Assembly: GCA_963675665.1 (NCBI GenBank)
Contig: OY776510.1
Span: forward strand, 2,400,001 to 2,464,000
Length of the DNA stretch: 64,000 nucleotides
Origin: Spirochaetia bacterium
GTDB lineage: Bacteria > Spirochaetota > Spirochaetia > UBA9216
Direction: 5' to 3'
Shown here in pieces: positions 3,325-61,669 of the stretch; position 1 is the first letter of the stretch; each line of letters opens with the position of its first letter. The notes beneath the pieces are model-generated. The model was not told the origin of the DNA. It did no database searches and worked only from the letters and a program-made list of their open reading frames with translations. Position numbers and translations under genes: made by a program.

Positions 3325-4457
3325 TTAATGCAGGTGTTATCGGGGCCGGGTATATTGGAAAGATACATCTTGATGCACTGAAAAGAATCAGCGGTGTGAA
3401 TATCAAGGCCGTCAGTGACATCAATCCAGAGTTTGCGCAGTCTGCGGCGGTGCATTTTGATGTTTCGGTTGCTGTACAAGATTATAAGGAAATTATTAAT
3501 GACAGTACTATTGATGTGATTCACAACTGTACTCCGAATAAATATCATTTTGATATAACTGAATCAGCCCTCGCAGCGGGAAAGCATGTAATGAGCGAGA
3601 AGCCTCTTGCCATGAATATCGTACAGGCTGAAGAGCTCTGTAATCTGGCTGAATCAAAAAAAGCCGTAACAGGTGTTAATTTTTGTTATCGATATTACCC
3701 GCTTGTTCAGGAGATGGCTGCAAGATTCAGACGGGGAGATGCGGGGGCTTTGCAGCTTGTTACAGGCACATGGTTTCAGGACTGGCTTTCAAGGGAAACT
3801 GATTATTCCTGGAGGCTTGATCGGGCGGAAGGGGGCGATTCGAATATAGCGGCAGATCTTGGCAGTCACTGGTTTGATCTTGTGCAATTTGTTACAGGGC
3901 AAAAGGTTAAAGAGGTTTTTGGAGATTTCCAGACGATCATAAAAGAAAGAAAAAAGCCAAAAATACAGGCGCTGGCTTTTCAGAAGACAGATTCTATTGA
4001 ATACGATTCGGTTGATGTTGAAGTAGAAGATTATGCTTCCATTCTTTTTCATTTTCAGAATGGAAGGCCCGGCTCGTTTACGGCAAGCCAGGTATGCAAC
4101 GGGAGAAAATCGGATACTGAATTCCAGATTTACGGATCAAAGTGTTCAATGGCCTGGAACCATAATGCCTCAGATAAAATATGGATAGGTTACAGGGACA
4201 AGGCTAACGAAGTTTTGACCGAATCACCTGTTTTGCAAATGGAGTCTACGGCTCGGTATGCTACGCTTCCTTCAGGGCATCCGGTAGGCTACTATGGCGC
4301 AGTACTGAATTTATTTAACGACTTTTATAATGCTGTTAAACAGAATTCTGTTCCCAACGAACTCGGGCGCCCGACTTTTGAAACCGGGTTTGAAGAAATG
4401 TGTATTTTGAAAGCAATACTGAAAAGTGTGAAAGAGAAGACCTGGGTTTTAGTATAG
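3321..4457 (+). CDS. Gfo/Idh/MocA-family NAD(P) oxidoreductase (paralog 1)
   Basis: GAGYIG Rossmann motif, EKPLA, DLGSHWFD. ATG at 3321 overlaps the upstream stop (ATGA) and has a GGAGG SD. Confidence 0.92.
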   Translation: MINAGVIGAGYIGKIHLDALKRISGVNIKAVSDINPEFAQSAAVHFDVSVAVQDYKEIINDSTIDVIHNCTPNKYHFDITESALAAGKHVMSEKPLAMNIVQAEELCNLAESKKAVTGVNFCYRYYPLVQEMAARFRRGDAGALQLVTGTWFQDWLSRETDYSWRLDRAEGGDSNIAADLGSHWFDLVQFVTGQKVKEVFGDFQTIIKERKKPKIQALAFQKTDSIEYDSVDVEVEDYASILFHFQNGRPGSFTASQVCNGRKSDTEFQIYGSKCSMAWNHNASDKIWIGYRDKANEVLTESPVLQMESTARYATLPSGHPVGYYGAVLNLFNDFYNAVKQNSVPNELGRPTFETGFEEMCILKAILKSVKEKTWVLV

Positions 4458-4527: not shown

Positions 4528-5760
4528 TTATTTTTCAGATTCCTCTGATTTCTTCCTGAGGAACCTGTAAAAGGCTCTCAAACCGGCTCCGTAGGCATCG
4601 TCTGATTCATTATAATCACAGTAGATTGTTTCGTAGTCAATCAGTAGTTCCGGAAGCAGTTCATATACAATTTTTTGTTCCAGCGATTCTTTAAAAAAGT
4701 TTCCCAGAATTGAGCTGTATCCGCTGATTAGTATCTTCTGGGGATTATATAGTTTGATCAAAGTGCAGCACGCGTTCCCGATAAAATTTCCGACTTCGTG
4801 AAGCGTATTTATTGCAAGTCTGTCTCCGCTTTCAGCCGCCTCTTTTATCAGCTCAATAGTTATGCCTGTCGCTCCTTCTTCAAGGTATTGCGACATGCTT
4901 GATATTACACCTTCTTTTAAACGATCATTAATTACTCTGATGATGCCGGTAGGGGAAATAATGGATTCAAGACAGCCGATTTTGCCGCAACTGCACCTGT
5001 ATGAGTTGTTGTTAACGGAAATGTGGCCTATCTCTCCGGCTGTGCCGTGATTCCCGATATATAATTCGCCGTTTATAAAGATGCCCGATCCGATTCCGTT
5101 GCCAAGGTAGAGCAGTACAAAATTATCAAGATCTTTTCCCTTTCCTGTGTTTTTTTCCAGGAAGGTAACTGATCGAGCCCTGTCGTCGATAAAAAATGGA
5201 AGGTGTGTAAAATTTTCAAGCATTTCAGCAATTTTTACGGGTTTAAGGATTCCGTGATGCGGACCGCTAAGCCATGTACCCCTTTTGGAATCAACCATAC
5301 CGGTTAACGCCATGCAGGCAGCCGATATGGTTTTATTCTCTGCGGTATATTCCGAGACTATTTTATTAATACAGGTTCCAATTGTTTCAACAAGATAAGC
5401 CGGAATGTCAGTCTCGGCAGGAATTTCCAAAGAGAATTTTTTGGAAAACACAAGTTTCTTTTCACAATCGGTTATTGCTATATAAAAATATTCTGCTTCA
5501 AGGGCTATTCCAAGGGTGTAAAAGACCTCGGCGGTCAGGGTGTAAATAATCGAGGGGCGGCCCGTTCCGGATTGTTGTTTCCCTTCTTTTTTTATAACTC
5601 CCATTTTCTCAAGTTCGTTAAGGAGTTCTGTAATCTTGATTATACTGAAGCCCGTAGTCTCCGACAGGGAGGCCCTTGTCGGAACGGACAGCTTAAATAT
5701 CGAATCTATTATTTTTATTTGGTCTTTTGTAAATTCCACTTCATAAGCCTCGGCCAACAT
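4528..5760 (-). CDS. ROK-family transcriptional regulator (NagC/XylR type)
   Basis: N-terminal wHTH (TRASLSETTGFS..SGTGRPS). ROK motif GIGSGIFING..AGEIGHI..CSCGKIGCLE. Confidence 0.92.
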   Translation of the reverse strand: MLAEAYEVEFTKDQIKIIDSIFKLSVPTRASLSETTGFSIIKITELLNELEKMGVIKKEGKQQSGTGRPSIIYTLTAEVFYTLGIALEAEYFYIAITDCEKKLVFSKKFSLEIPAETDIPAYLVETIGTCINKIVSEYTAENKTISAACMALTGMVDSKRGTWLSGPHHGILKPVKIAEMLENFTHLPFFIDDRARSVTFLEKNTGKGKDLDNFVLLYLGNGIGSGIFINGELYIGNHGTAGEIGHISVNNNSYRCSCGKIGCLESIISPTGIIRVINDRLKEGVISSMSQYLEEGATGITIELIKEAAESGDRLAINTLHEVGNFIGNACCTLIKLYNPQKILISGYSSILGNFFKESLEQKIVYELLPELLIDYETIYCDYNESDDAYGAGLRAFYRFLRKKSEESEK

Positions 5761-5864: not shown

Positions 5865-7001
5865 TTATACAGATGTCCATGCCTTTTTTTCATTACTCCT
5901 TATAATCGCGTCAAGAATTACCATTTCTTCATATCCCGTGCGGAAGTCAGGGCGACCGAGTTTATTATTTTCAGTTCCGTTTTTAACTGTATTATAGAAA
6001 TCCTTAAACAGGTTCAGTACTGCGCTGTAATAGCCAACGGGGTGACCCGTCGGGAGTGTCGCATATTTTGCAGTGGACGGATCCTGTAATAAAGGGGATT
6101 CGGTAAGGATTTCATTAGCTTTTTCCCGATGCCCAATCCATAACTTGTCCGCATATTTATGGTTCCATGCCATTGAGTACTTTGAGCCGTAAATTTGAAA
6201 TTCGGTGTCGGACTTTCTTCCGTTGCATATCTGGCTTGTAGTAAAGGAGCCCGGTTTTCCGTTTGAAAAGCGGAAAAGTATTGAAGAGTAATCATCAACT
6301 TCAATATCTACAGTCTCGTATCCTTCCGATTTAGCCTTTTCGAAAGCAAGAACCTGCTGTTTCGGCTTTTTTCTTTGTTTTATAAGCGTACGCATGTCTC
6401 CGAAGACTTCGATGATTTTTTCTCCTGTAACAAACTGTACCAAATCGAACCAATGACTGCCCAAATCTGCTGTTGTGTTGGATATTCCGCCTTCGGACTT
6501 GTCAAGCCTCCATGAATAATCAGTTTCTTTTGAAAGCCAGTCCTGAAACCATGTTCCCGTTGCAAACTGTAAATCTCCTGCATCTCCGCGCCTGAATCTT
6601 GCAGCCATTTCCTGAACGACCGGATAATACCGGTAACAGAAATTTACGCCGGTCACCGCCCGCTTTGATTCCGCAAGATTAGTAAGCTCTTCAGCTTCCT
6701 TCAGTGTCATAGCAAGAGGTTTCTCGCTTAATACATTCTTGCCTACAAGAAGAGCTTCTCTTGTTATGTCGTAATGATACTTGTTGGGGGTGCAATTGTG
6801 TATTACGTCGATATCCGGCGATTCGATTATCTCCTTGTAATCTGTTGCCGTTTTGCTGACGTCGAATTCGGCAGCAGTTGTTTCTGCAAGTTTTCTGTTT
6901 GAATCGGTTACAGCCAGAACTTTGACTCCGCTGATTCTTTTCAGGGCGTCGATATGTACTCTGCCGATATAACCTGTTCCGATAACTCCGATATTTATCA
7001 T
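5865..7001 (-). CDS. Gfo/Idh/MocA-family NAD(P) oxidoreductase (paralog 2)
   Basis: Same motifs and same length (378 aa) as 3321..4457. AAAGGAG SD. Confidence 0.92.
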   Translation of the reverse strand: MINIGVIGTGYIGRVHIDALKRISGVKVLAVTDSNRKLAETTAAEFDVSKTATDYKEIIESPDIDVIHNCTPNKYHYDITREALLVGKNVLSEKPLAMTLKEAEELTNLAESKRAVTGVNFCYRYYPVVQEMAARFRRGDAGDLQFATGTWFQDWLSKETDYSWRLDKSEGGISNTTADLGSHWFDLVQFVTGEKIIEVFGDMRTLIKQRKKPKQQVLAFEKAKSEGYETVDIEVDDYSSILFRFSNGKPGSFTTSQICNGRKSDTEFQIYGSKYSMAWNHKYADKLWIGHREKANEILTESPLLQDPSTAKYATLPTGHPVGYYSAVLNLFKDFYNTVKNGTENNKLGRPDFRTGYEEMVILDAIIRSNEKKAWTSV

Positions 7002-7166: not shown

Positions 7167-7195
7167 TTGACAGATGCGAATTGCGGTGATAACAT
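7167..7195 (+). promoter_or_regulatory. Sigma70-type promoter of the DegT-UroD-ABC-MttB operon
   Basis: TTGACA-17 nt-(TGn)TAACAT. Confidence 0.65.
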
Positions 7196-7238: not shown

Positions 7239-8519
7239 ATGAAAGAAAAGCTCGCCATGGAAGGCGGACCTAAAGCTAAAACTACTGCGACGTATCCGAT
7301 GTATCCGGGAGGGTTGGAAATAGGTGAAGAGGAAAAAAAGGAAGTGCTCGAAGTCCTGGAGAGAAAATATCTGTTCAGGTATTACGGGCCGGAAAAATAT
7401 CCGTCCAAGGTAAAAGAGTTTGAAACCCGATTTGCGGAAATGGTCGGGGCGAAAAATGCATTGGCTGTAACTAACTGTACCGGGGCCCTTATAACATCAT
7501 TGGTTGCCTGCGGTATTGGCCCGGGAGATGAGGTCATTGTCAGCGGTTATACTTTTTTTGCTTCATGCGCCGCTATTGTTGCAGCAAAAGCTATCCCGGT
7601 AATTGCCGAAGTAGATGAAACGCTGACGCTGGATCCTGTTGACTTTGAAAAGAAAATTACTCCGTCGACAAAAGCGGTAATAGTAGTTCACATGAGAGGA
7701 GTTCCCTGCGATATGGACAGGATAATGGCTATAGCTCAAAAGCACAATCTGAAGGTGATTGAAGACTGTGCTCAGGCTGTGGGAGGTTCCTATAAGGGGA
7801 AAGCGCTCGGGACTTTCGGAGATTGCGGCTGCTACTCTTTTCAGTACCATAAGATCATTACTGCCGGTGAAGGCGGGATGATAGTGACCGATGATGATCG
7901 CATTTATGATCGATGTATGGGGTATCATGACACCGCAGCCTGCTGGAGGCCTGAGAGGTTTGCTGAGCAGCGCTATGAAGGGGAGCTCTTTGCCGGTGTT
8001 AATTACAGGATGAGTGAACTGACGGGGGCTGTAATGAATGCCCAGCTTTCAAAACTGGATAATCTTGTTGCTCTTATGAGAAGAAATCAAAAAAGGATAA
8101 TTGACGGAATACGTGAAACAGACGGAATAACAATTCGACCGGTAAATGATCCGGAAGGAGATGTCGGAATATGCCTGATGTTTTATTTGGACAGTTCGGA
8201 TAAGGTTGAGCCCTTTGTGAAGGCTTTGAATGCGGAAGGCGTTGATGCGGGCGGCGTTTTTGATGCTGCTGTTCCCGATTGGCATGTATATTCTCACTGG
8301 AAACACATTATTGAGAAAAAAACGCCTACCGAAGAAGGCTGCCCGTGGACTTGTCCGTTTCATAAAGGCAAGGATATCGAGTATTCCGAAGATATGAATC
8401 CGAATACTCTTGATTACCTGGGAAGGGTTGTACATCTTGATATCCCATCACAACTTACAGTAGAAGAGTGCGATATGATTGCAAAGGGAATTAATAAGGT
8501 TGCGGCTCATTTTGCGTAG
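7239..8519 (+). CDS. DegT/DnrJ/EryC1/StrS-family PLP aminotransferase (paralog 2)
   Basis: YLFRYYG, GDEVIVSGYTFFAS, IEDCAQAVGG, SFQYHKIITAGEGG, GVNYRMSE. ATG 7239 has an AAGGAG SD. Confidence 0.92.
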   Translation: MKEKLAMEGGPKAKTTATYPMYPGGLEIGEEEKKEVLEVLERKYLFRYYGPEKYPSKVKEFETRFAEMVGAKNALAVTNCTGALITSLVACGIGPGDEVIVSGYTFFASCAAIVAAKAIPVIAEVDETLTLDPVDFEKKITPSTKAVIVVHMRGVPCDMDRIMAIAQKHNLKVIEDCAQAVGGSYKGKALGTFGDCGCYSFQYHKIITAGEGGMIVTDDDRIYDRCMGYHDTAACWRPERFAEQRYEGELFAGVNYRMSELTGAVMNAQLSKLDNLVALMRRNQKRIIDGIRETDGITIRPVNDPEGDVGICLMFYLDSSDKVEPFVKALNAEGVDAGGVFDAAVPDWHVYSHWKHIIEKKTPTEEGCPWTCPFHKGKDIEYSEDMNPNTLDYLGRVVHLDIPSQLTVEECDMIAKGINKVAAHFA

Positions 8520-8546
8520 GCACACACTGAAAGGGGAGTATGATAT

Positions 8547-9662
8547 ATGGCCTTGAAATTTGATATTCCTCATGGCGAAGTGGAACGAAGAAAAGATGTT
8601 GTTCGCAGAGTGTGGGACTATAAAGAGGTTGATCATATTCCCGTCTGTTTTGATCTTAAATACAATCCCGGGGGGATAACGGTTAGAGAAGAACTGACGG
8701 ATAAGGAGAAGCAGCTTGAATTGCGTTTATATAATATTGAAAAAAGTATAAACGAAATTCCTGATGACTATATTCCATCGTGTTTTCTCAATATCGGGTG
8801 TGTGGGCGTTGATGTGGCATATGGAGCGGAAGTTTTCTGGGAAGACGAAGCCAGGAATCCGTATATAAAAAAAGAAGTAATTAACAAGACTGAAGATATT
8901 TTCAAGCTGCAAAAACCTGATGTAAGAAAAGACGGAATGTTTCCGATGTTTCTTGATCTTATGAAATATGTGATAAAGGAAACTGAAGGATACATTCCGG
9001 TGTCGTGTCTGGATAATAACGGTATTACGGGGGTTGCCTGTGATCTTCTGGGAGCAGACAGGTTCTACATGATGCTCCTGGATGATGAGGCGGCCATGAA
9101 GCATTTGCTTGATATGATAAGTGATACCATCATTGAATTTACTGATGTATGTATTGAAATAGCCGGTGGTATCAACAATGTTACTTCTACCGACTGGTTT
9201 TACTTTTGGACGCCTGAAGGCCGGAAAGGGCATGTTTCCTGTGATGCCAGTGCAAATTACGGCCCGCAAATGTTTAAAAAGTATGATATTCCATTTAATA
9301 ATAAAATCTTTGAAAAATATGGAGCAGGCTTATTACATAATTGCGGACCGAATCCCTGCGGTCTCGAGTATCCTGAGCATTCGCAAAATCTTGCCGGTGT
9401 AAACCTTGCATATAAATATTCCAAAGACGATTTCGCTCGGATGAAAAAAGCGTACAGCGGGAAAAATATAATTTACATTATTTTTGATAATGAATCTCCA
9501 GAAGAAGCCTTATCAGGATGGAAAACGGCAATGGAAATCCTGTCCCCGGATGTTATCTCAATACCTATAGTTTTTATAGCCGAGGAAACAGATGATATAG
9601 CACGCCTCTATGAGAGATATCTGAAAGTGGGGAAAGAGTACGCCCGAAGAGTATGGCGTTGA
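8547..9662 (+). CDS. Uroporphyrinogen decarboxylase / MtaA-CmuA-like (corrinoid methyltransferase-family) protein
   Basis: Pattern 'LGADRFYMMLLDDEAAMKHLLDMISD', CDASANYGPQMFKKY and the Zn-type LLHNCG motif typical of the URO-D/MT superfamily. Confidence 0.7.
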   Translation: MALKFDIPHGEVERRKDVVRRVWDYKEVDHIPVCFDLKYNPGGITVREELTDKEKQLELRLYNIEKSINEIPDDYIPSCFLNIGCVGVDVAYGAEVFWEDEARNPYIKKEVINKTEDIFKLQKPDVRKDGMFPMFLDLMKYVIKETEGYIPVSCLDNNGITGVACDLLGADRFYMMLLDDEAAMKHLLDMISDTIIEFTDVCIEIAGGINNVTSTDWFYFWTPEGRKGHVSCDASANYGPQMFKKYDIPFNNKIFEKYGAGLLHNCGPNPCGLEYPEHSQNLAGVNLAYKYSKDDFARMKKAYSGKNIIYIIFDNESPEEALSGWKTAMEILSPDVISIPIVFIAEETDDIARLYERYLKVGKEYARRVWR

Positions 9663-9729
9663 AAATATTTTATAATGGATTTTATGGTGTAACCATAGGA
9701 TAATAAAAATTTTATTAAAGGACGGTGTT

Positions 9730-10986
9730 ATGAAGTCAGTGAGAAAAATTGGTGTCTGTATCATGCTTCTGGTTTTACTGGGAATTATCCCGGTTTTTGC
9801 CGGTGGTGCACAGGAGAAATCTGATGATGGAGTAGTAAAACTCCAATTCGCAAGCTGGATGGTAGCTGAGGCTTCAGGCGGAGAGGAAATTATCCCTGCA
9901 AAGATAGCTGAATGGGAAGCTGCACATCCCGGTGTTGAAGTGGAAGTTGTTCCTCTTGGATGGGAAGAAACACCGGATAAAATCATCCAGCAGACCATTG
10001 CGAAAAATATGCCTGACATTTTTACTATTGAGTCTTTATGGCTTGGTAAGTTTGAAGGCATGCCGAACTGCGTAGAAGATCTGAGTTCTTACATGGACGC
10101 AGGTTTTACTTCGGAGCTCATTCCTGCATATAAAAGCGGGATTATGAACGGTAGAACCGCCGGTCTGTTGTGGAGTCCGAACCCGATGTTCATTGTTTAT
10201 AACAAGGAGCTGGCAGCAAAAGCCGGGGTCTCCGGAACGCCGAAAAGTCTGGAAGACTGGGTTTCGCAGGCTGAAAAAATAAGCGCCCTTGGAGACGATA
10301 TATACGGTCTCGGTCTGCAGCTGGGTATTGATGAATATTCGGCAGACTTTTTTCATATCCTTGCCTGGATGAAAGGTGCCGATCTTCTTGATGCCTCCGG
10401 AAAACCTGTGGTGGATTCTGCAGAAATGGCCGATACGGTTGATCTTGTCAAATCTCTGGTCGACAGGAAGATTGTTCCCTTCGGTGAGGAAGTAAGAAAT
10501 TTGAGAACGATGTTTGCTCAGGGAAAGCTCGGGTTTTTTATTGAAGGCCCATGGATTGCCGGTATACTGGATGCGGAAGGAATGTCGAGAGACGAATGGG
10601 GCGCTGCTGCTGTGCCTGGAAATGTATCTCCCTGTTCTCACCTGCTGTGTATGTCTGCGCAAACGGAGAATAAGGATCTTGCATGGGATCTTATGAAATA
10701 TATTGTTTCCGAAGAATCTCTTACGAGTGAGTATTTTAAGGGTACCGGTTTGCTTCCGGTAGTGGCATATCAGTATGATAATGCCATTTATAATGATGAG
10801 CCCACCCGAATCGCTTTGGAAGCAATGTCAAATCTTAAGAATCCCAATGTATGGCAATCCCAGAAGAAATATGAAATTGAAATAGCTTTCATGGAGGTTG
10901 TTCAGAAAATCCTTCTTAATGATGACGATATCGGTAGCTCGTTAAGCGCTCTTAATGAGGACATTGCTGAAATCATTTCAGAGTAG
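9730..10986 (+). CDS. Carbohydrate ABC transporter substrate-binding protein (CUT1)
   Basis: Signal peptide ending VFAGGAQE. SBP_bac_1-like motifs (VYNKEL, FAQGKLGFFIEGPW, DLAWDLMKYI). Confidence 0.88.
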   Translation: MKSVRKIGVCIMLLVLLGIIPVFAGGAQEKSDDGVVKLQFASWMVAEASGGEEIIPAKIAEWEAAHPGVEVEVVPLGWEETPDKIIQQTIAKNMPDIFTIESLWLGKFEGMPNCVEDLSSYMDAGFTSELIPAYKSGIMNGRTAGLLWSPNPMFIVYNKELAAKAGVSGTPKSLEDWVSQAEKISALGDDIYGLGLQLGIDEYSADFFHILAWMKGADLLDASGKPVVDSAEMADTVDLVKSLVDRKIVPFGEEVRNLRTMFAQGKLGFFIEGPWIAGILDAEGMSRDEWGAAAVPGNVSPCSHLLCMSAQTENKDLAWDLMKYIVSEESLTSEYFKGTGLLPVVAYQYDNAIYNDEPTRIALEAMSNLKNPNVWQSQKKYEIEIAFMEVVQKILLNDDDIGSSLSALNEDIAEIISE

Positions 10987-10991
10987 TACAG

Positions 10992-11007
10992 AGGGCCTTC
11001 GGGCCCT
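10992..11007 (+). other. C(UUCG)G tetraloop hairpin after SBP gene (probable mRNA stabiliser or partial terminator)
   Basis: AGGGCC-TTCG-GGCCCT. Confidence 0.5.
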
Positions 11008-11030
11008 TTGATTTTAATAGGGGGGTATTG

Positions 11031-11942
11031 ATGAAAGATAGTACTAAACCATTGTCCGGCCATTATCTCAGCGACAGGATGTTTGCTTTCCTCCTGCTTC
11101 TTCCGGCTATAGTAGTGATAATTTTTATTATTGTTGTACCGCTTGTTACCGGAATTTATACAAGTTTTTTCAGATATTTTATGTCTGATTCCAGGGGTAT
11201 GGAATTTGTAGGTTTTCAGAATTATATTAGAATGTTCAGCAGGGGAGCTTTTTGGAATGCCTTTTTGAACACTCTGGTATATGTAGGAGGCTGCGTCCTG
11301 GGAGAGTTTGTAATCGGTTTTACTCTGGCTCTGCTTTTAAACTTTAGTTTCAGGGGCAAAGAGATAATAAACAGCCTTTTCTTTGTGTCGTGGATTATTC
11401 CGTCTATTGTTGTCGCCCTGATAACAAAGTTTTTATTTTTTGATCATTATCACGGAATAATTAATGTAGTACTTCAAAATCTGGGAATAATTGATGAATT
11501 TCTTCCCTGGTTGAAAGATCCAAACCTGGCAATGCCTTCGATACTTATAGCGACTGTATGGAAGATGTTTCCATTCATGTTTGTCCTTCTTTATGCGGGG
11601 CTTCAGGCTATACCGATTTCCGAAATAGAGGCTGCGAGGATAGACGGCGCAAATGCTTTTCAAAGATTTTTCTATATCACAATCCCTAATATGAGAGAGA
11701 TTATTGCCCTTGCCACCGTGCTGGAATTTATATGGATGTTTCAGTATATGACGATTATCTGGACTACAACAAAAGGCGGGCCGGCAGATGTGACTACAAC
11801 TCTACCGGTTATGATTTACAGGGTTTCGTTCAAAGGAAGCATGAATATGGGTTATGCTTCGGCAATAGGAGTTTTCTGGATGCTTTTTCTTCTGGGCTTC
11901 AGTATTTTTTACGTAAAAATGGTCGGAAAGGAGGAGAAGTAG
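11031..11942 (+). CDS. Carbohydrate ABC transporter permease (MalF/UgpA type)
   Basis: FVGFQNY, EAA motif EAARIDGANAFQRFFYITIP, GGPADVTTTL, MGYASA. Confidence 0.92.
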   Translation: MKDSTKPLSGHYLSDRMFAFLLLLPAIVVIIFIIVVPLVTGIYTSFFRYFMSDSRGMEFVGFQNYIRMFSRGAFWNAFLNTLVYVGGCVLGEFVIGFTLALLLNFSFRGKEIINSLFFVSWIIPSIVVALITKFLFFDHYHGIINVVLQNLGIIDEFLPWLKDPNLAMPSILIATVWKMFPFMFVLLYAGLQAIPISEIEAARIDGANAFQRFFYITIPNMREIIALATVLEFIWMFQYMTIIWTTTKGGPADVTTTLPVMIYRVSFKGSMNMGYASAIGVFWMLFLLGFSIFYVKMVGKEEK

Positions 11943-12808
11943 TGAGACAGCCGGGAAAGATGAACAGAACGAGAATAATAAAAACTATCAGAATAGTAAT
12001 TATTATAATTCTGCTTACTATAACATTATCGCCGCTTTACTGGATGGTGAATGTATCATTCAAGAATCAGGATGAAATCTTTCAGATTCCTCCTACTTTT
12101 TTTCCGAACAATTTTACGCTTGAGAATTATAAAGCTATTCTGATTGGAAATTTGTCTTCTTCCATTAAATTCTTAATGTATTTTAAAAACAGCCTGATAG
12201 TTGCAGCATTGACGGTTGTCGTTACTTTGCTGGTTGCTACACCGGCCGCATATGCCCTTTCAAGGGTCCGGTTTAAAGGTAAAAGGATGCTGATATATTT
12301 TGTGCTGATTTCACAGATGTTTCCAATTGTATTGATTCTTATCCCCCTCTATCAATCATTTCTTCGGTTGAATCTGGTCAGTACATTTGCAGGCCTTATG
12401 CTGGCAAATATGATGTTTGCCCTGCCGTTTTCAATATGGATGCTGAAAGGATATTTCGATTCAATACCGGGGGTTCTGGATGACGCTGCCAAAGTTGACG
12501 GTTGCAGTCGTATGCAGGCAATGCTTCTGGTAATCATGCCGAATGTCAGGCCGGGGCTTACTGCTGCAGCTATAGTGGTTTTTATTCAATGTTGGGATGA
12601 ATTCATGATTGCCCTGACCGTAATGGATAAAAATTCGATGAGGACTCTGCCTGTGGGCATTATTCAGTCTTTTGTGGGTGAGTTCTCGATAAAATGGGGA
12701 GAGATGATGGCTGCTTCCGTTATAACGACAATTCCGGTTGTTATCATCTTTATTTTTCTCAGCAAGAATCTTATCGGCGGACTGACTGCGGGCGCTGTTA
12801 AGGGATAA
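11942..12808 (+). CDS. Carbohydrate ABC transporter permease (MalG/UgpE type)
   Basis: DDAAKVDGCS EAA motif, WDEF, TLPVGI, GGLTAGAVKG. Start taken at GTG 11942 (AGGAG SD); ATG 11960 is also possible. Confidence 0.9.
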   Translation: MRQPGKMNRTRIIKTIRIVIIIILLTITLSPLYWMVNVSFKNQDEIFQIPPTFFPNNFTLENYKAILIGNLSSSIKFLMYFKNSLIVAALTVVVTLLVATPAAYALSRVRFKGKRMLIYFVLISQMFPIVLILIPLYQSFLRLNLVSTFAGLMLANMMFALPFSIWMLKGYFDSIPGVLDDAAKVDGCSRMQAMLLVIMPNVRPGLTAAAIVVFIQCWDEFMIALTVMDKNSMRTLPVGIIQSFVGEFSIKWGEMMAASVITTIPVVIIFIFLSKNLIGGLTAGAVKG

Positions 12809-12824
12809 TATTGGAGTATGAATA

Positions 12825-14258
12825 ATGCAAATGAATAATCTGAAGGTGTTATCCGATGAGGAAGTTGCAAACATAGTAAAAGCCTCATCGAGGATCCTCA
12901 GTGAAACAGGAGTCAAAATCGACAGCAGTACTGTTCTTGAAAAGCTTTCAAAAAAGGGCGCTGTAGTTGATTTTAAAGCGGGTATAGCAAGGTTTCCGGA
13001 GGAAATACAAAGAAAATGCCTGGAGTCGGCTCCCAAGGAAATACCTGTAGTTAACCGTAATGGAGAATATCAATTTACAATCGGCGGAGACAGTACTGTT
13101 TTTGCAAGCGGGCATAATGCTGTTTTTTTTGATGACTATATAACAGGTGAGCACAGACAGTTCGTTCGAAAGGACGTCAGAGATTATATTGCGGTTGCTC
13201 ATAATCTGGATGAGGTTGATTTAATCGGTTTGCCGGCCTCGCCTGGAGATGTGCCGCCGGCAAGTTCATTATTATATTCGCTGATGGATACATTTACTTT
13301 AAGTGATAAACCTGTTTATTTCTCTACTGAAAGCGACAGAATAAATCATTATGCAATTGAAATGGCTCAAGCGTCTGCGCCTCTGGCTGTGAATAAAGGT
13401 GCATATATGATCAGCCAGCTGTCTCCCACCTCTCCGTTGTTCTGGGAGAAGGGCGCCGTACAGGGAGTTGTTGAATGTGCGGAAAGAGGGTTTCCTGTTT
13501 CAATCCTTCCTGAACCTATAGCAGGCGTAACGGCTCCATATTCGCTTTCAGGACTTGTGACCGTGCATAACGTGGAAGCTCTTTCGGGAATAATTATCAC
13601 ACAGCTGATTAATCCCGGAACCCCTGTAATATGGGCAAGCAGCTGGACAACTTTTGACATGAAAAAAAGCGCTGCACTTGTCGGTTCTGTAGAAACTACA
13701 CTTTGCAGAATTGCCGGAGCCCAGGTTGCAAAGTATTATAATCTTCCCCTGCATACGACCGCCCCTAATTCGGACAATCATTCGCCTGATGAGCAGAACA
13801 GCTGGGAAAAGACTTTAAGTTCCTTTTGTGCAGCTTCGTCCGGAAATAATCTTATTATGAATATGGGAATGTATGCCTGCGGTATGACTATCAGCCTGGA
13901 GCAGTTAGTGCTTGATGCTGAAATAATCGGTCAGATTAAAAGGTTGAGAGAAGGTGTTGATGCTTCGGTTGATATGATAGCTGAAGAACTGATTGGAAAG
14001 GTCGGATACAGGGGTTCTTATATTATTGAAGATCATACCATAGATTTGTTGAAAACAGGTGAATACCGGGAACCTCTGATAGCTGTCAGGCAGAATCTTG
14101 ATTTATGGAAAGAAAAAGGAGCAAAGAATTCCATGGAACTTGCTCACGCTATGGTTAACAAGTTGCTGTCCCAGCCTTTGCCTGTGGTTGATGATAAAAA
14201 ATATGCAGAGATGTTTTCAATAATTAATACTTGTGAAAAGGAGTTGCTAAATGGCTAA
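12825..14258 (+). CDS. Trimethylamine methyltransferase (MttB) superfamily protein, non-pyrrolysine
   Basis: LKVLSDEEV..ILSETGV, GVTAPYSLSG, QLINPGTPVIW, FDMK, AQVAKYYNLP, SDNHSPDEQNSWEKT, SLEQLVLDAEI. No in-frame TAG. Confidence 0.88.
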   Translation: MQMNNLKVLSDEEVANIVKASSRILSETGVKIDSSTVLEKLSKKGAVVDFKAGIARFPEEIQRKCLESAPKEIPVVNRNGEYQFTIGGDSTVFASGHNAVFFDDYITGEHRQFVRKDVRDYIAVAHNLDEVDLIGLPASPGDVPPASSLLYSLMDTFTLSDKPVYFSTESDRINHYAIEMAQASAPLAVNKGAYMISQLSPTSPLFWEKGAVQGVVECAERGFPVSILPEPIAGVTAPYSLSGLVTVHNVEALSGIIITQLINPGTPVIWASSWTTFDMKKSAALVGSVETTLCRIAGAQVAKYYNLPLHTTAPNSDNHSPDEQNSWEKTLSSFCAASSGNNLIMNMGMYACGMTISLEQLVLDAEIIGQIKRLREGVDASVDMIAEELIGKVGYRGSYIIEDHTIDLLKTGEYREPLIAVRQNLDLWKEKGAKNSMELAHAMVNKLLSQPLPVVDDKKYAEMFSIINTCEKELLNG

Positions 14259-15066
14259 TATTAGTGTGTGTGCTGAATGTTTCTTTACCGATTTGCCTTT
14301 TGCAGAAAGGGTGAAGAAAATAGCTGCTATCGGATACCGGGATATTGAATTCTGGCATCCGGAAGGAACGTTTAACGGAAGTGATATTGATTTTACGCAA
14401 GCCAAGGATGCGGCGACGCTTAACAGTTCGGCCGGTTCGGTCGGCGTGAAATATAATGATTTCGCATTTGGCGCATGGGACGGTTCGATCGGCGGTAATG
14501 CGACAAAAAAAGAAGACCATGAAAAATGGCTGCAGCAGATTGATGCAATGCTGGCTTTTGCTCAAAGCATCTCCTGTCCAAAAGGGATAATTCTTTCGGG
14601 AATGACTCAGCAGGGAATGAATCGTGATCTTATGAACGGGAACCTGTTGATTGCGTTTGGAAAAGCCGCTTCCGCTGCTGAAAAAGCAGGCATTACGCTT
14701 GTGATAGAACCGCTTAACAGTCTTGTAGATCATGCCGGGTATTATCTTGATAAAACCGGTGCGGCTGTTGAACTTATAAGACAAATTAATAGCCCTAACC
14801 TGAAAATGCTGTACGATGTTTATCATATGCAGGTCATGGAGGGGAATATTCTGGATTTTATTGAAAGAAATATCGATATTATCGGACATTTTCATTCTGC
14901 CGGAGTTCCCGGACGTGCCGAATTGTTCGATACGGAAGTCAATTATCCTGTTATTATAAAGAAAATTGATGAACTTGGATATGACGGATGTTTTGGTCTT
15001 GAGTATTTCCCAAAACTGGAAGATGAAGAATCATTAAAAAGAACTCTGGAGTATTTAACTGTCTGA
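14251..15066 (+). CDS. Hydroxypyruvate isomerase (Hyi)-like TIM-barrel sugar isomerase
   Basis: IEPLNSLVDHAGY, LYDVYHMQVMEGN, GHFHSAGVPGR, GCFGLEYFP. Confidence 0.85.
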   Translation: MANISVCAECFFTDLPFAERVKKIAAIGYRDIEFWHPEGTFNGSDIDFTQAKDAATLNSSAGSVGVKYNDFAFGAWDGSIGGNATKKEDHEKWLQQIDAMLAFAQSISCPKGIILSGMTQQGMNRDLMNGNLLIAFGKAASAAEKAGITLVIEPLNSLVDHAGYYLDKTGAAVELIRQINSPNLKMLYDVYHMQVMEGNILDFIERNIDIIGHFHSAGVPGRAELFDTEVNYPVIIKKIDELGYDGCFGLEYFPKLEDEESLKRTLEYLTV

Positions 15067-15088: not shown

Positions 15089-15133
15089 GAGAGCCTTTAG
15101 TGCTGAATTGCCGCCCGAAGGCTCTTTTTTTTG
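15089..15133 (+). terminator. Intrinsic terminator ending the MttB operon
   Basis: GAGAGCCTT...AAGGCTCTT followed by a T-run. Confidence 0.65.
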
Positions 15134-15204
15134 ATCGCTGGAAAATAAATATCAATAACTAATTTATAGATGACCAGATAACTAAGATATGATATTGTCC
15201 ATGT

Positions 15205-16176
15205 ATGACTGAAATAACTGACAGCAGGATAAAAATAAAGGACAAGTTGGGCGCTGTAGCTGTGCGCCTGGGGTTTTTCAGGGGTTCTTATTCGATTTCT
15301 CCGGGATTATACAATTTGAATAATCCCGATTCAAACTCCCCGGTTTTTGTTTCTGCAAATTATAAATTGTCGTTTGATATTCTCAGAAAATCATTGAAGG
15401 GCATAAGTTGCTGGTTGCTTGTTCTGGATACAAAAGGAATAAATGTATGGTGTGCTGCGGGTAAGGGGACTTTCGGGACCGATGAGCTTGTTGAACGTAT
15501 TGACAAAGTGCAGCTTTCACGTCAAGTGAACCATAAAAATATAATTGTACCGCAGCTAGGCGCACCAGGGATTAAAGCTCGGGAAATCAGGCTGAAAACA
15601 GGATTCAGGGTGATTTACGGGCCGGTTGAAGCCAGGGACATTCCTGAATTTATTTCAAACGGACTAAGAAAATCGGAGCAAATGCGAAGAAAGACTTTCA
15701 GGATCCGTGAACGTCTTGTTCTGGTTCCGGTTGAGCTGATTCATGCATGGAAGCTCCTGCTGCCGATAATTGCTGCCAGTATACTATTCAGTTTCTTTAC
15801 GGCCGGGCCGGAGAAGTTTGATTTGCTTTCTGCTGTTTTGCCCGGTATTCTGGGTGTAGTGTCAGGAGGGCTGTTGATGCCCACGCTCCTTCCCTGGTTG
15901 CCTTTCAGGGCGTTTTCATTGAAAGGGGTATTCAGCGGAGTAATAGTTGCACTGTTATGGCTTATAACGACAGGACCTGAGCTTGCAGCTGCATTGTTCG
16001 GCGGCGGTTTGCTGATAACGTCATCATCCTTTGTGGCAATGAATTTTACCGGATCCTCGACTTTCACTTCATTGTCCGGGGTTAGGAAAGAGATGAGAAT
16101 TGCGGTTCCTGCGCAGATTGTTTCTGTTTTTATTTTTACCGTATCCGCAATTTTTCTTGCTGTTTTTGGAGGTTGA
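15205..16176 (+). CDS. hgcA: Mercury methylation corrinoid protein HgcA
   Basis: Cap-helix motif DTKGINVWCAAGKGTFG, SPVFVSANYKLSFD, PQLGAPG, YGPVEARDIP, and a C-terminal TM domain with MNFTGSSTFTSLSGVRKEM. Directly followed by hgcB. Confidence 0.96.
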   Translation: MTEITDSRIKIKDKLGAVAVRLGFFRGSYSISPGLYNLNNPDSNSPVFVSANYKLSFDILRKSLKGISCWLLVLDTKGINVWCAAGKGTFGTDELVERIDKVQLSRQVNHKNIIVPQLGAPGIKAREIRLKTGFRVIYGPVEARDIPEFISNGLRKSEQMRRKTFRIRERLVLVPVELIHAWKLLLPIIAASILFSFFTAGPEKFDLLSAVLPGILGVVSGGLLMPTLLPWLPFRAFSLKGVFSGVIVALLWLITTGPELAAALFGGGLLITSSSFVAMNFTGSSTFTSLSGVRKEMRIAVPAQIVSVFIFTVSAIFLAVFGG

Positions 16177-16178
16177 TT

Positions 16179-16475
16179 TTGATTTATCTGAAGAATGTTT
16201 CTACGCTTGAGTATGATCGGAACAGCTGTACGGGATGCGGCATGTGTATTGAGGTCTGTCCGCATAATGTTTTTGAGCGCGAAGATGGAAAAGTTAAAAT
16301 TCTTTCAAAAGATCGATGTATGGAATGCGGTGCCTGCATGATGAACTGTGCATTCGATGCAATACGGGTAAATAAAGGAGTCGGTTGTGCTTCTGCTGTA
16401 ATCAATGGAGTTCTGAAGGGGACTGAACCGTCCTGCGGATGCAGCGACGGTAATAGCAGCGGCTGCTGTTGTTGA
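16179..16475 (+). CDS. hgcB: Mercury methylation 2[4Fe-4S] ferredoxin HgcB
   Basis: CTGCGMCIEVCP and CMECGACMMNC motifs, GVGCA, Cys-rich tail (..GCCC). TTG 16179 follows a GGAGGT SD (track start 16173). Confidence 0.95.
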   Translation: MIYLKNVSTLEYDRNSCTGCGMCIEVCPHNVFEREDGKVKILSKDRCMECGACMMNCAFDAIRVNKGVGCASAVINGVLKGTEPSCGCSDGNSSGCCC

Positions 16476-16483
16476 GTGAAGTA

Positions 16484-17512
16484 TCAATCGATAGTATCGG
16501 ATGTTATAATTTCAATCGGAATATCCAGTATATCGGCCTCAGGCGACTGGTGTCTTATCAGGTGATCGAACATGGTTTTTATCAGAAGGTACCCCTGGTA
16601 TTCCGGGTTTTGTCCCAATGTGAAATCGATTGTTCCGTTTTTAAGCAGGTTTACGGTCGCGGGAACAACATCGTGTGAAATAACCTTAATTTTTCCAACT
16701 TTGCCGGCTATCTCCAGGGCCCGGCCTATTCCGGCGCAGCCTCCACCCGTTATGTAAATACCTTTCAGGTTAGGGTGGTTTTGGCAGTATTCAAGAACAA
16801 TTTTAAAAGCTGCTTCAGTCCGGTCCTGGTTTTCCCGGATATCTATAATATTAACGTGTGGGTGAAAGTCGTTGATCCTTTCCTGGAAGCCTCTGAGCCG
16901 GTCCTGGTGACAAGAGAGGCTTTTTGAGCTGATGATTATTCCGATATCGCCTCCTTCGGGAAGGAGTTTGCTCATCAGTCCGGCGGCAGTACGTCCGCCC
17001 CTGAAATGGTTCTGCCCGACAAAGCAGATATCGTCTATTTCCTTAATCTGTGAATTAAAAGTAATAATCGCTGTTCCCTTTTTGCCCATAAGGTTAATCT
17101 TTTCGACAACCTGGGGGTCGTTCAGCGGGAAAACCGCTACGCCTGCAAAGTTTTCATTCTCAAAATGGTTTAAAATACCGATTTGTTCAGCAGGTTCAAG
17201 TGTGCTGAGCATTTTTATTGTTATGTCGATACCGAATAATTTGAATTCATCCCGGGCTTTGTGTATTCCCTGAATGATTTCGTGGACAAAGGGGTTGTAT
17301 TCGGGAGTGAGAATAACTCCTATTCTGGTTTTTTCCTTGCTCATAACAAGGGCTTTTCCAAGATAATTGGGCTTGTAGTTCAGCTCTTTAGCTATTCTGA
17401 GAACACGTTCCCTGGTTTCTGTTTTCACACCCGGACGGTCGTTAAGTACTTTGTCTACCGTACCGCGTGATACTTCCGCCAGTTCTGCGATCTGCTTTAT
17501 TGTAACAGACAC
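16484..17512 (-). CDS. LacI-family transcriptional regulator
   Basis: VTIKQIAELAEVSRGTVDKVLNDRPGV HTH plus a periplasmic-binding-type sensor domain. Confidence 0.93.
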   Translation of the reverse strand: MSVTIKQIAELAEVSRGTVDKVLNDRPGVKTETRERVLRIAKELNYKPNYLGKALVMSKEKTRIGVILTPEYNPFVHEIIQGIHKARDEFKLFGIDITIKMLSTLEPAEQIGILNHFENENFAGVAVFPLNDPQVVEKINLMGKKGTAIITFNSQIKEIDDICFVGQNHFRGGRTAAGLMSKLLPEGGDIGIIISSKSLSCHQDRLRGFQERINDFHPHVNIIDIRENQDRTEAAFKIVLEYCQNHPNLKGIYITGGGCAGIGRALEIAGKVGKIKVISHDVVPATVNLLKNGTIDFTLGQNPEYQGYLLIKTMFDHLIRHQSPEADILDIPIEIITSDTID

Positions 17513-17676
17513 CCTCTGCCTCCAGTAATGTCTATTATATGTGTAAAAAAAAACTTTTGCTATACGTTTTTAAGGAAAAATAACACACGTGCACAATTGA
17601 TTATAAAAATAGTAACGTAAAATTCGTGTTAAGAGTATAAATGAGCAAAAATACGGCAAATATCATCAGAAAAACA

Positions 17677-17724
17677 TTGCAATCCGGGTATTCATATGTT
17701 AACATAAAAATGTGCACGAGCACA
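17677..17724 (+). promoter_or_regulatory. Sigma70 promoter with adjacent LacI-type operator
   Basis: TTGCAA-17-(TGn)TAACAT at 17677-17705. Near-perfect palindrome TGTGCACGAGCACA at 17711-17724, with a second related site (AACACACGTGCACA) at 17582-17595. Confidence 0.7.
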
Positions 17725-17819
17725 ATTTTATGTTGTAAGCTATCAATAAGAAACTGTTTTACATTTATACACAAACATATTTTGGGGTTTGTGTTTGTGG
17801 AATATCAGAAGGAGTGACT

Positions 17820-18692
17820 ATGAAATTTGGAACGTTGTATTCCTACTGGAATAATACCTGGAGCTGTGACTATTTCAGAACAGCTGAAAGGGTAAGACGT
17901 GCAGGTTTTGATATCCTTGAAATAGGAGCAGGGCATCTGCTGGATATGTCAAAAGAGGATATTCTGAAACTGAAGGAACATTCAGCAAATTTGGGGCTGA
18001 CTGTAACCTGTAATATAGGTCCTGCGAAGGACAAGGATGTTGCATCTGCAGATGCGGATACTCGGAGAGCAGGCATTACATTTCTGTCGGATATCATGAA
18101 AGCAATGAAGCTTCTCGGATCAAAAACGCTTGTAGGTGTTCAATATACATACTGGCCGAATGATTTCAGTGATCTTGATAAACCTGCTATCTGGGCGCGC
18201 GGAGTTGAAAGTGTAAAGGAACTCGCGAAAACAGCTGAAGACTGTGATGTGCAGATGTGTCTTGAGGTTGTCAACAGATTTGAGACTCACATTCTAAATA
18301 CAGCAGAAGAGGCTATATCGTTTTGCAATGAAGTAGGGCACAAGAATGTCAGCATACTTCTTGATACATTTCACATGAATATTGAAGAAGACAATATTGC
18401 TGATGCGATCCGGTTGGCAGGCAGCAGGCTTGATCATCTTCATGTCGGAGAAGGAAACCGGAAGCTTCCGGGCGAAGGTTCGCTTCCCTGGACTGAAATT
18501 GGGCAGGCATTACGAGATATTAATTTTACAAAAGGCGTTGTTATGGAACCGTTTTACTTTTCAGGGGGAAAAGTGGGCGAGGATATCAAGGTCTGGCGTG
18601 ACCTCAGTGAAGGTGCAACTGCCGAAGAGATGGATAAGCGCATAGAAACATCCTTAAAATTCCTCAGGAATAAATTCGTCGGTGAGGATTAA
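17820..18692 (+). CDS. Ketose 3-epimerase (D-psicose/D-tagatose 3-epimerase family)
   Basis: MKFGTLYSYW, EVVNRFE, LLDTFHMNIEE, HLHVGEGNRKLPG, VMEPF..GEDIKVWRDLS. Confidence 0.88.
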   Translation: MKFGTLYSYWNNTWSCDYFRTAERVRRAGFDILEIGAGHLLDMSKEDILKLKEHSANLGLTVTCNIGPAKDKDVASADADTRRAGITFLSDIMKAMKLLGSKTLVGVQYTYWPNDFSDLDKPAIWARGVESVKELAKTAEDCDVQMCLEVVNRFETHILNTAEEAISFCNEVGHKNVSILLDTFHMNIEEDNIADAIRLAGSRLDHLHVGEGNRKLPGEGSLPWTEIGQALRDINFTKGVVMEPFYFSGGKVGEDIKVWRDLSEGATAEEMDKRIETSLKFLRNKFVGED

Positions 18693-18696
18693 TTGA

Positions 18697-44293: not shown

Positions 44294-44330
44294 AAAAAAA
44301 CCGAAGCCACCTGGCGGTGACCTCGGTTTT
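44294..44330 (-). terminator. Intrinsic terminator of the tRNA pair
   Basis: Minus strand reads AAAACCGAGGTCACC-GCCA-GGTGGCTTCGGTTTTTTT. Confidence 0.7.
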
Positions 44331-44403
44331 ACGTCCAAGAGGATTCGAACCTCTGACCTACGGCTTAGAAGGCCGTTGCTCTATCCAGCTGAGCTATGGA
44401 CGC
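44330..44403 (-). tRNA. tRNA-Arg(TCT), CCA not encoded
   Basis: GCGTCCA TAGCTCAGCTGGATAGAGC A ACGGC-CTTCTAA-GCCGT AGGTC AGAGG-TTCGAAT-CCTCT TGGACGT A. Confidence 0.97.
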
Positions 44404-44454
44404 ATATTAAAAATAATTTTTCAGGCCGCGGCTTTTCAGCGGTTGCCCGGGAAT

Positions 44455-61548: not shown

Positions 61549-61551
61549 ATG

Positions 61552-61662: not shown

Positions 61663-61669
61663 TTTTACA

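Follow-up and report, generated by a model that had tools for sequence, protein, structure and literature searches.

Which compound is degraded through an operon in which a relative of the trimethylamine methyltransferase MttB is encoded among proteins of sugar metabolism? This question is raised by seven genes on the + strand of a spirochaete genome, at positions 7239-15066 of the window, the whole stretch of 64,000 nucleotides analyzed here, which corresponds to positions 2,400,001-2,464,000 of the complete 5.15 Mb genome. The genes form one operon and encode a DegT-family aminotransferase, a UroD-superfamily protein, a binding protein and two permeases of a carbohydrate-type ATP-binding cassette (ABC) importer, an MttB-superfamily protein without pyrrolysine (Pyl), and an isomerase-like protein of the Hyi/OtnI type. 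The MttB-superfamily protein carries Asn at the position of pyrrolysine, and its clade is designated as MttB-N. The reading proposed here, which is given an even chance, is that the operon imports a sugar-like compound with a methylated amino group, which is demethylated in a corrinoid-dependent manner, and then deaminated and isomerized. The substrate would be a methylated amino sugar, amino-polyol, or aminocyclitol. We infer every catalytic step, the order of the steps, the identity of the substrate, and the presence and involvement of a methyl group from what is observed: the gene content and layout, the family and fold assignments, the residue substitutions, the conservation of the gene set, and the corrinoid machinery encoded elsewhere.

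Gene Organization of the Operon

The seven genes are spaced by 16-67 bases or overlap, and the overlapping or nearly abutting arrangement indicates translational coupling. The first gene (7239-8519) encodes a KdnA-like DegT-family aminotransferase of the pyridoxal phosphate (PLP)-dependent type, with 426 amino acids (aa) from the ATG at 7239 and a PF01041 match of 287 bits. Its open reading frame (ORF) opens at GTG 7218, and the ATG at 7239 is the likelier start because an AAGGAG ribosome-binding site precedes it. The MtaA-like UroD-superfamily protein (8547-9662; PF01208 44 bits) contains the stretch LHNCGPNPCG. The third gene (9730-10986) encodes an extracellular solute-binding protein (SBP) of the CUT1 type with a signal peptide (SBP_bac_8 110.7 bits, SBP_bac_1 96.2 bits). 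It is followed by two permease genes, one similar to MalF/UgpA (11028-11942; BPD_transp_1 70 bits, UgpA 104 bits, MalF 90 bits) and the other to MalG/UgpE (11957-12808; BPD_transp_1 50 bits, MalG 153 bits over residues 76-358). The ORF of the second permease opens at 11732, and the MalG match begins at residue 76, corresponding to the ATG at 11957. The MttB-N gene (12825-14258; PF06253, 477 aa) and the gene of a xylose-isomerase-fold TIM barrel similar to Hyi/OtnI (14251-15066; PF01261 97 bits) complete the operon, the latter overlapping the stop of the former by 8 bases.

A sigma-70-like promoter with an extended TG (TTGACA-17-TAACAT; 7167-7195, + strand) precedes the operon, and a mirror site (7051-7023, - strand) would serve the divergent gene; both are consensus matches only, the former at 10 of 12 positions. 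Downstream, an intrinsic-terminator-like hairpin followed by T8 is located at 15092-15135 (+ strand; -16.2 kcal/mol, z -2.4). Its 8-bp stem, AGAGCCTT/AAGGCTCT, lies at around 15092-15127 and encloses a long loop, and 3 of 200 shuffled sequences fold equally well. A GC-rich hairpin just 3' of the SBP gene (10989-11010, + strand; 9 pairs including 6 G-C, loop of 4) is possibly a partial terminator or an mRNA stabilizer within the operon. The divergent gene (5865-7001, - strand) encodes a Gfo/Idh/MocA oxidoreductase (GFO) similar to levoglucosan dehydrogenase, with the domains PF01408 and PF22725. Downstream from it lies the gene of a ROK-family regulator (4528-5760, - strand; PF00480 154 bits), which is NagC/Mlc-like with an N-terminal winged helix and scores 178.8 bits with the NagC model, under the cut-off of 650. 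A terminator after the ROK gene was detected in the signal scan (4513-4486, - strand).

A prediction made earlier from the letters of the window alone (the original prediction) had described a single operon with a DegT aminotransferase, a UroD/MtaA-like HxCG protein, a carbohydrate (CUT1) ABC importer, a non-Pyl MttB with, by eye, Asn at the Pyl-equivalent position, and a Hyi-like protein, with a promoter at 7167, a terminator at 15089, and a GFO gene and a ROK regulator in the divergent direction. All of these elements were recovered, and the profile, alignment, and structural evidence for the proteins is given in the following sections. The missing ABC ATPase, the hgcAB pair downstream, and another sugar module upstream had escaped the original prediction.

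The MttB-N Protein and Its Clade

The MttB-N protein of the window shows a full-length match to its family, PF06253 (272.8 bits, residues 3-465 on profile positions 28-490 of 500). The sole match among the NCBIfam models is TIGR02369 (trimethylamine methyltransferase MttB) with 347.8 bits, under the cut-off of 525. The frame is uninterrupted, with no in-frame stop, and PylS was not found in the genome with a genome profile search. Asn315 is aligned with the pyrrolysine X334 of MttB from Methanosarcina barkeri (7xcl).

In the database search with this protein, 7999 candidates were scored and 1088 relatives were obtained. The nearest ones, 58-71% identical, come from spirochaetes (Spirochaetota). 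A large group shows 43-48% identity, and its source names include Clostridiaceae, Armatimonadetes, Phycisphaerae, and Atribacter/Atribacteraceae; one clade member that is 45% identical (P0109) bears the source name Atribacter laminatus. Among the best 120 matches of near length, the sole extra domain is a permease fusion (P0018). No fused MttB-N form longer than 836 aa was found, which is weak evidence.

The residues invariant in 23 clade members are H310-T-T-A-P-N315, D317, D322-E-Q-N325, W327-E328, H97, N98, E230, N346, and G353, and the clade motif can be written as HTTAPNSD..DEQNSWEK. Two motifs from this invariant stretch were scanned in one-genome-per-species collections. Of 184 candidate stretches, 163 encode an MttB-N relative, and the species genomes belong to more than 10 phyla. 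In a quick maximum-likelihood tree, from which one locus with a truncated MttB (L031) was left out, the window and 79 loci form one clade with a Shimodaira-Hasegawa-like approximate likelihood ratio test (SH-aLRT) support of 98. This clade is separate from the second MttB paralogue of the same genome and from the second paralogues of the spirochaete loci. We regard MttB-N as a new clade of the MttB superfamily that is widespread and occurs in a new metabolic setting.

The scores against solved structures are 191 bits for MttB, 174 bits for the glycine betaine methyltransferase MtgB, and 130 bits for 4yyc, and those within the clade are 440-770 bits. It had been expected that the protein stands apart from betaine and carnitine enzymes. 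This holds for the comparison that was made, with the solved MtgB, 4yyc, and Pyl-dependent MttB.

The active site was compared with those of two characterized enzymes. In the accessible part of the MtgB report (PMC13080624), Y97 and F356 constitute a cation-pi pair, and H348 and R312 bind the carboxylate of glycine betaine. The alignment with 9yce is offset by +2 from this numbering, as shown by R, H, and F, which occupy chain positions 310, 346, and 354. The residues Y97, R312, H348, and F356 named there correspond to H97, H310, N346, and G353 in the window protein; all four are thus replaced, and the new residues do not vary within the clade. For M. barkeri MttB, the accessible part of the report (PMC9842639) describes hydrogen bonds of the Gly110-Thr111 peptide and Gly372 with the corrinoid, Met249 as a gate over the cobalt, and Tyr364 as the partner of pyrrolysine. 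At the positions aligned with these residues, A94-S95, the invariant G353, the invariant E230, and M345 are observed, respectively. Positions facing the cofactor are thus kept or conservatively changed, while the substrate pocket is remade with polar and acidic residues. Glu230, Asp317, and Asn315 would suit the binding of a secondary or tertiary amine in protonated form, or of a ligand rich in hydroxyl groups.

Conservation of the Gene Set

Gene neighborhoods were collected with tblastn using the window proteins and with clustering of all ORFs within 8 kb of MttB. The 80 MttB-anchored loci that were kept, many of them short, encode a Hyi-like protein in 39 cases, a close DegT in 30 (and a more distant one in 9 more), a YidK-like SSF transporter in 20, GFO in 19, a UroD-like protein in 17, an XylA-like protein (Arthrobacter-type xylose-isomerase-like) in 14, and a CUT1 permease in 12. 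For the 36 loci in which MttB is flanked by 5 kb or more in both directions (full-flank loci), the counts are 20 for Hyi, 17 (+6) for DegT, 11 for SSF, 10 for GFO, 9 for the UroD-like protein, and 16 for any transporter. The gene order DegT-Hyi-MttB is found in Spirochaetota, Atribacterota, Bacteroidota, Bacillota, Verrucomicrobiota (Akkermansia), Armatimonadota, Lentisphaerota, and Planctomycetota, and contexts with partner genes are spread across all subclades of the MttB-N tree. DegT is better conserved across phyla (60-78% identity) than MttB (44-48%).

Metagenome contigs were also scanned with DegT as the anchor. Out of 599 pattern matches, 447 were confirmed relatives; 80 loci were kept, 78 of which were scored for corrinoid proteins. 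Of the metagenome loci, 22 combine an identity of 60% or more with 3 kb or more of downstream sequence. A Hyi-like gene is present in 17 of them and an Asn-type MttB in 6, with neither in 5. The tightest unit is DegT-Hyi, and MttB is a frequent, not obligatory, third member. The neighborhood analysis bears out the expectation that the genes co-occur in other genomes: DegT, Hyi, and UroD-like genes are found beside MttB-N well beyond the genome of the window, with the core of the set in many phyla.

The Partner Enzymes and Transporters

The closest solved relative of the operon DegT is KdnA (5k8b), with 271.6 bits over residues 23-364, and the next entry scores 175 bits. The Lys of the stretch SF..K.IT.GEGG is aligned with the Lys of KdnA. 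The protein belongs to PF01041 and has the PLP lysine, and it reaches no curated equivalog (best LegC, 200 bits versus 420). Transaminases of the kanosamine type (NtdA, 92.6 bits) and the inosose type (150-154 bits) were considered and are clearly more distant than KdnA. The expectation of an inosose- or nucleoside diphosphate (NDP)-sugar-type transaminase was therefore abandoned, the operon DegT being far closer to KdnA.

A C-terminal motif, G-C-P-[WF]-T-C-P-[FY], is common to the operon DegT (CPWTCPFH) and a DegT from another complete spirochaete genome, G087 (L089:977-2233). It is gapped out in a second DegT encoded upstream in the window.

The Hyi-like protein scores 163.7 bits with TIGR03234 (hydroxypyruvate isomerase; cut-off 353.45) and 150 bits with the 2-oxo-tetronate isomerase model (cut-off 325). 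It reaches neither isomerase equivalog and fits only the wider PF01261 fold family. Its nearest entries in PDB are 3ngf (101.5 bits) and Escherichia coli YgbM (1k77, 73.6 bits). The divergent GFO scores 182 bits with NF052479, under the cut-off of 650, and is most similar to 4h3v (148 bits) and levoglucosan dehydrogenase (6a3f, 134.5 bits). Given the similarity to KdnA and Hyi/OtnI, the substrate may have its amine at a terminal carbon beside a hydroxyl. Judged from homology only, transamination of such a compound would yield an alpha-hydroxy aldehyde, and the isomerase would turn this product into a ketose.

The UroD-like protein matches PF01208 over residues 84-204 only (44 bits versus the cut-off of 23.9). 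Its scores with models of the MtaA/CmuA families are 21-46 bits against cut-offs of 235-600 (TIGR01463 29.2/235.4; PRK06252 45.6/244), and no sequence match was obtained among PDB entries. The AlphaFold2 model has a predicted local distance difference test (pLDDT) score of 93.6. The top Foldseek matches of this model, ranked above true UroD, are 4ay8 and 4ay7, the methylcobalamin:coenzyme M methyltransferase of Methanosarcina mazei (query TM-scores 0.69/0.68, target TM-scores 0.74/0.75, e-values 2e-13 and 7e-13, 17-18% identity). The motif H264-x-C266-G (LHNCGPNPC), which we take to be a zinc site, is invariant in 15 orthologues. As modeled, the UroD-like protein has an MtaA-like fold with an H-x-C metal motif.

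The importer consists of a family-1 SBP and two MalF/MalG-type permeases, all sugar-type by profile, and is probably of the CUT1 class. The operon itself lacks an ABC ATPase gene. Elsewhere in the genome, beside the corrinoid cluster described below, lies the gene of a MalK-type ATPase (L002:14283-15377, - strand), which may be shared by ATPase-less CUT1 importers such as that of the operon. The nearest solved proteins to the SBP are distant oligosaccharide binders (Lin1841 with 74 bits, MalE3, and GacH). All transporter types beside the MttB-N clade are sugar-like: CUT1, YidK-like SSF (284 bits), and GguB (519.7 bits, above the cut-off).

Corrinoid Proteins in the Genomes with MttB-N

The genome of the window encodes only two MttB-family proteins and two small corrinoid proteins. 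One of the latter, of the MtgC type (2,068,048-2,068,734), scores 212.9 bits with NF047996 and 200.3 bits with TIGR02370, both just under the cut-off. It adjoins an MtaA-family gene, CobW, and the reductive activator RACo, with no methyltransferase I beside it, and is located 345 kb from the operon. The second small corrinoid protein adjoins a second URO-D gene. Among five other genomes bearing the clade, four encode a small corrinoid protein with B12-binding_2 and four encode RACo, while RACo is encoded in 1 of 14 control genomes. A wider survey of RACo across Spirochaetota would be uninformative because the MttB-rich family f13 would carry RACo for other paralogues anyway.

An Akkermansia genome (L085, G001:C16:5000-22000) carries the genes DegT-Hyi-XylA-like-MttB-GFO. 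Its lone corrinoid protein (217 aa) is 51% identical to that of the window's genome (54% over a 185-residue tblastn match) and is encoded between an ABC-2 exporter and an FGE-sulfatase-family gene, with RACo around 6 kb away.

The strongest link of MttB-N to a corrinoid protein is an island in G087. Its first row consists of MttB-N, DegT, and UroD-like genes. The second row, 3 kb on, consists of DegT, GFO, a sister MttB, a corrinoid protein, and another MttB. The sister MttB is 38% identical, has Asp at the Pyl position, and ends 42 bp before the corrinoid protein gene. The DegT leading this row is 53% identical to the upstream DegT of the window.

The 34 kb around these rows (G087:C1:3496000-3530000, L088/L089) contain seven MttB-family, four URO-D-family, and two DegT genes, one class-III aminotransferase gene, two xylose-isomerase-fold or GFO genes, one corrinoid protein gene, and two ABC importers. 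The island looks like a battery of modules for demethylation followed by deamination.

A single in-frame TAG is present in several MttB homologues of the Spirochaetota family f13 (G087:C1:3507856-3509262, G127:C117:9238-10641, G141:C4:58343-59746, and others). G087, G127, and G141 encode the C-terminal domain of PylS (318-338 bits versus the cut-off of 178), and in G127 it is located around 700 bases after the TAG-containing MttB. These features suggest pyrrolysine decoding in these spirochaetes.

The second MttB paralogue in the genome of the window (L001:9282-10628, 448 aa; L001 is G000:C1:2747000-2766900) is divergent from a polar-amino-acid-type ABC importer (SBP_bac_3), and a 4Fe-4S protein gene on the opposite strand overlaps its 3' end. 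With this different context, it probably has a different substrate.

The Proposed Pathway and Its Alternatives

In the proposed pathway, the CUT1 system would import the compound with an ATPase encoded elsewhere. MttB-N would act as methyltransferase I and transfer a methyl group from the protonated substrate to Co(I) of a corrinoid protein, for which the MtgC-type protein near the MtaA-family gene, CobW, and RACo is the candidate. The MtaA-like UroD protein would hand the methyl to an acceptor, or would take off a second kind of methyl. The KdnA-like aminotransferase would then convert the freed primary amine to a carbonyl, and the Hyi/OtnI-like isomerase would move the carbonyl to the adjacent carbon. 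The divergent GFO dehydrogenase would set the oxidation state, and an ordinary sugar would enter central metabolism. The ROK protein would regulate the gene set.

A more specific version is proposed tentatively and is rather doubtful: the MttB-N clade would represent the first corrinoid methyltransferase for non-quaternary, sugar-borne methyls. A polar acidic pocket (Glu230, Asn315, Asp317, and His97/310) would replace the pyrrolysine or the aromatic cage, and would activate an N-methyl (or O-methyl) amino sugar in its protonated form. In combination with the KdnA-like transaminase and the isomerase, it would constitute a widespread oxygen-independent route for unrecognized methylated amino sugars. 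One possibility in this version is terminal (omega) methylamino-deoxy sugars. The route would extend from sediment Planctomycetota and Atribacterota to gut Akkermansia.

Several observations weigh against the proposed pathway. No corrinoid protein was found in the operon or the flanks of the 80 MttB-anchored loci with tblastn using five corrinoid proteins and the own genome as a positive control, or in the 78 scored DegT-anchored loci with tblastn using two corrinoid proteins. One complete clade-bearing genome (G002) lacks any B12-binding_2 protein, with RACo present. The clusters of corrinoid, MtaA-like, and RACo genes resemble "mlp" clusters, which lack a tetrahydrofolate (THF) methyltransferase and for which a methyl-sulfur or methyl-selenium role is proposed in the accessible part of a preprint (10.1101/2023.07.31.551370). 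The clusters may serve another pathway, and because of this likeness the corrinoid cluster is not specific evidence for a partner of MttB-N. MtgB holds the quaternary amine with two aromatic residues, and neither is present in MttB-N. No partner gene at all is present in 12 of the 36 full-flank loci, and in 7 of the 22 loci anchored on DegT, Hyi is accompanied by GFO or an XylA-like gene, with no MttB. In its simple form, the pathway is also at odds with the DegT, which is far more similar to KdnA, an enzyme acting at the terminal carbon of a free sugar acid, than to inosose or NDP-sugar transaminases. Finally, we know of no abundant natural N-methylated amino sugar that would explain the wide distribution.

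The methylated amino-sugar or aminocyclitol pathway of the original prediction stands in part. The conserved gene set, the sugar-type transporters, the lost betaine site, and the MtaA-like fold agree with it. The KdnA-like DegT, the DegT-Hyi loci with no MttB, and the loci scored with no corrinoid gene speak against its simple form.

The shortage of corrinoid genes would be explained if MttB-N were not a methyltransferase and served as a corrinoid-free TIM barrel (isomerase, lyase, or deaminase-type helper) acting on an amino sugar that bears no methyl. The absence of corrinoid genes from the 158 related loci that were scored and of a B12-binding_2 protein from genome G002 fits this explanation, as do the replacement of all four MtgB substrate residues, the new invariant Glu230 with many polar invariant residues, and the many loci with the DegT-Hyi pair and no MttB. 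It is the main alternative, but is unlikely. The Gly that bonds the corrinoid in the accessible description of M. barkeri MttB is invariant (G353), and the Gly-Thr turn is conservatively changed to Ala-Ser. The sister clade with Asp at the Pyl site adjoins a corrinoid protein in G087, and the MtaA-like protein co-occurs in 17 of the 80 loci. RACo, otherwise rare, is encoded in four of the five carrier genomes and in the genome of the window. All characterized superfamily members named in the literature compared are corrinoid methyltransferases.

The characterized non-Pyl members all use quaternary amines, and an ordinary demethylase of betaine, carnitine, or choline was considered, in which case the aminotransferase and the isomerase would finish the demethylated small amine and no sugar would be involved. 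CUT1 and SBP_bac_8 systems are known as families to carry non-sugar solutes too, and Hyi/OtnI enzymes act on C3-C4 hydroxy-carbonyl acids, such as might arise from a carnitine-like skeleton. This explanation is quite improbable in view of the betaine site, with none of the four residues known from the accessible MtgB report conserved, and of the sugar character of everything around the clade: three independent transporter types are sugar-type, GFO (19/80) and xylose-isomerase-like (14/80) genes recur, and the regulators belong to sugar-related types (ROK, LacI, and cupin).

Unrelated sugar operons are densely packed in this region, and separate sugar and amine functions could have become neighbors by chance, as the full-flank loci lacking all partner genes might indicate; the recurrence of the DegT-Hyi-MttB order in many phyla and the translational coupling of the window genes make this very improbable. 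It is scarcely credible that MttB and the MtaA-like protein feed methyls to the corrinoid protein HgcA and tie the operon to mercury methylation: the hgcAB pair lies on the same strand, 139 bp beyond the operon, and the operon has no corrinoid protein of its own, but a terminator-like hairpin lies between them, HgcA is absent from all 80 MttB-N loci, and HgcA and MttB-N are unlinked in four other Spirochaetota with both.

The proposed demethylation of a sugar-like compound would have wider consequences. Most of the many non-Pyl MttB relatives still lack a substrate assignment; MAGICdb labels the unassigned members "MtxB". Characterized members use small quaternary amines or trimethylamine. If the reading is right, a sugar-operon clade in more than 10 phyla widens the chemistry of the MttB superfamily, a pool of methylated amino-sugar-like compounds exists in anoxic habitats, and fermenters have an additional methyl source for one-carbon metabolism. 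The clade offers the SBP, MttB, the MtaA-like protein, and the KdnA-like transaminase as assay targets.

Neighboring Genes in the Window

The hgcAB pair downstream from the operon passes both equivalog models. HgcA (15205-16176, + strand) scores 400.8 bits against the cut-off of 275 and contains NVWCAAGKGTF, and the ferredoxin HgcB (16173-16475, + strand) scores 125.4 bits against 99. The adjacency of the operon and hgcAB is unique to the genome of the window. In the four other Spirochaetota with both HgcA and MttB-N, the two are on different contigs or 1 Mb apart. HgcA is above the cut-off in 27 of 151 sampled Spirochaetota genomes.

Upstream in the window, profile matches revealed another module with a GguB-like CUT2 sugar ABC permease (828-2075), the second DegT (2131-3324), and a second GFO (3288-4457), all on the + strand. 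Its SBP, ATPase, and LacI regulator are located just before the window start. Downstream from hgcAB, a LacI-family regulator (- strand), a D-psicose 3-epimerase (385.9 bits versus 300), and a tagatose-kinase-like PfkB protein (281.5 bits, under 420) are encoded at 16484-19641; judged by these matches, this is a rare-sugar module. A molybdenum cofactor (Moco)/tungsten riboswitch (61.5 bits, gathering score 36) and two tRNA genes are found at 61539-61671 (- strand) and 44330-44527 (- strand).

Comparison with Known Systems

Full-text literature searches revealed no publication in which an MttB relative is connected with genes for DegT, a Hyi-like protein, or sugar transport, and the matches for Akkermansia with trimethylamine methyltransferase that were examined stood in reference lists only. 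The supposition that the pathway had not been described agrees with this, as no description was found in print.

MtgB from Desulfitobacterium hafniense (2qne, 9yce) resembles the window MttB in superfamily, length, lack of pyrrolysine, and end-to-end alignment. It differs in having Leu at the Pyl position instead of Asn, and in the residues for betaine. The MtgB gene presumably sits beside the genes of its corrinoid protein and THF methyltransferase, whereas the operon of the window MttB has no corrinoid protein and its neighbors are sugar genes.

MtaA/MtbA (4ay7/4ay8) share the fold and the H-x-C-G motif with the UroD-like protein; to our knowledge, bacteria lack coenzyme M. The same fold and motif are found in the UroD-superfamily O-demethylases OdmB and VdmB, which are named in the accessible part of the preprint cited above (10.1101/2023.07.31.551370).

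The Pyl-dependent MttB from M. barkeri (7xcl/7xcm/7xcn) is the best solved sequence match to the window MttB. Its Gly372 is kept as G353, while Pyl334, Tyr364, and Met249 are replaced by Asn315, Met345, and Glu230.

The catabolism of rhizopine (3-O-methyl-scyllo-inosamine) by moc genes and the kanosamine genes NtdA/NtdC combine a GFO dehydrogenase and a xylose-isomerase fold with an importer of the sugar type and with a DegT-type transaminase whose substrate is an aminocyclitol or amino sugar. Neither includes MttB, and the demethylation in the Moc pathway is reportedly oxygen-dependent.

KdnA, the 8-amino-3,8-dideoxy-manno-octulosonate (Kdo8N) transaminase from Shewanella, has the catalytic Lys stretch in common with the operon DegT. 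It is said to form Kdo8N by placing the terminal 8-amino group on a free sugar acid instead of a nucleotide sugar, and to be biosynthetic and paired with an alcohol dehydrogenase. The operon DegT is instead paired with an isomerase, importers, and MttB, and it is therefore most likely catabolic.

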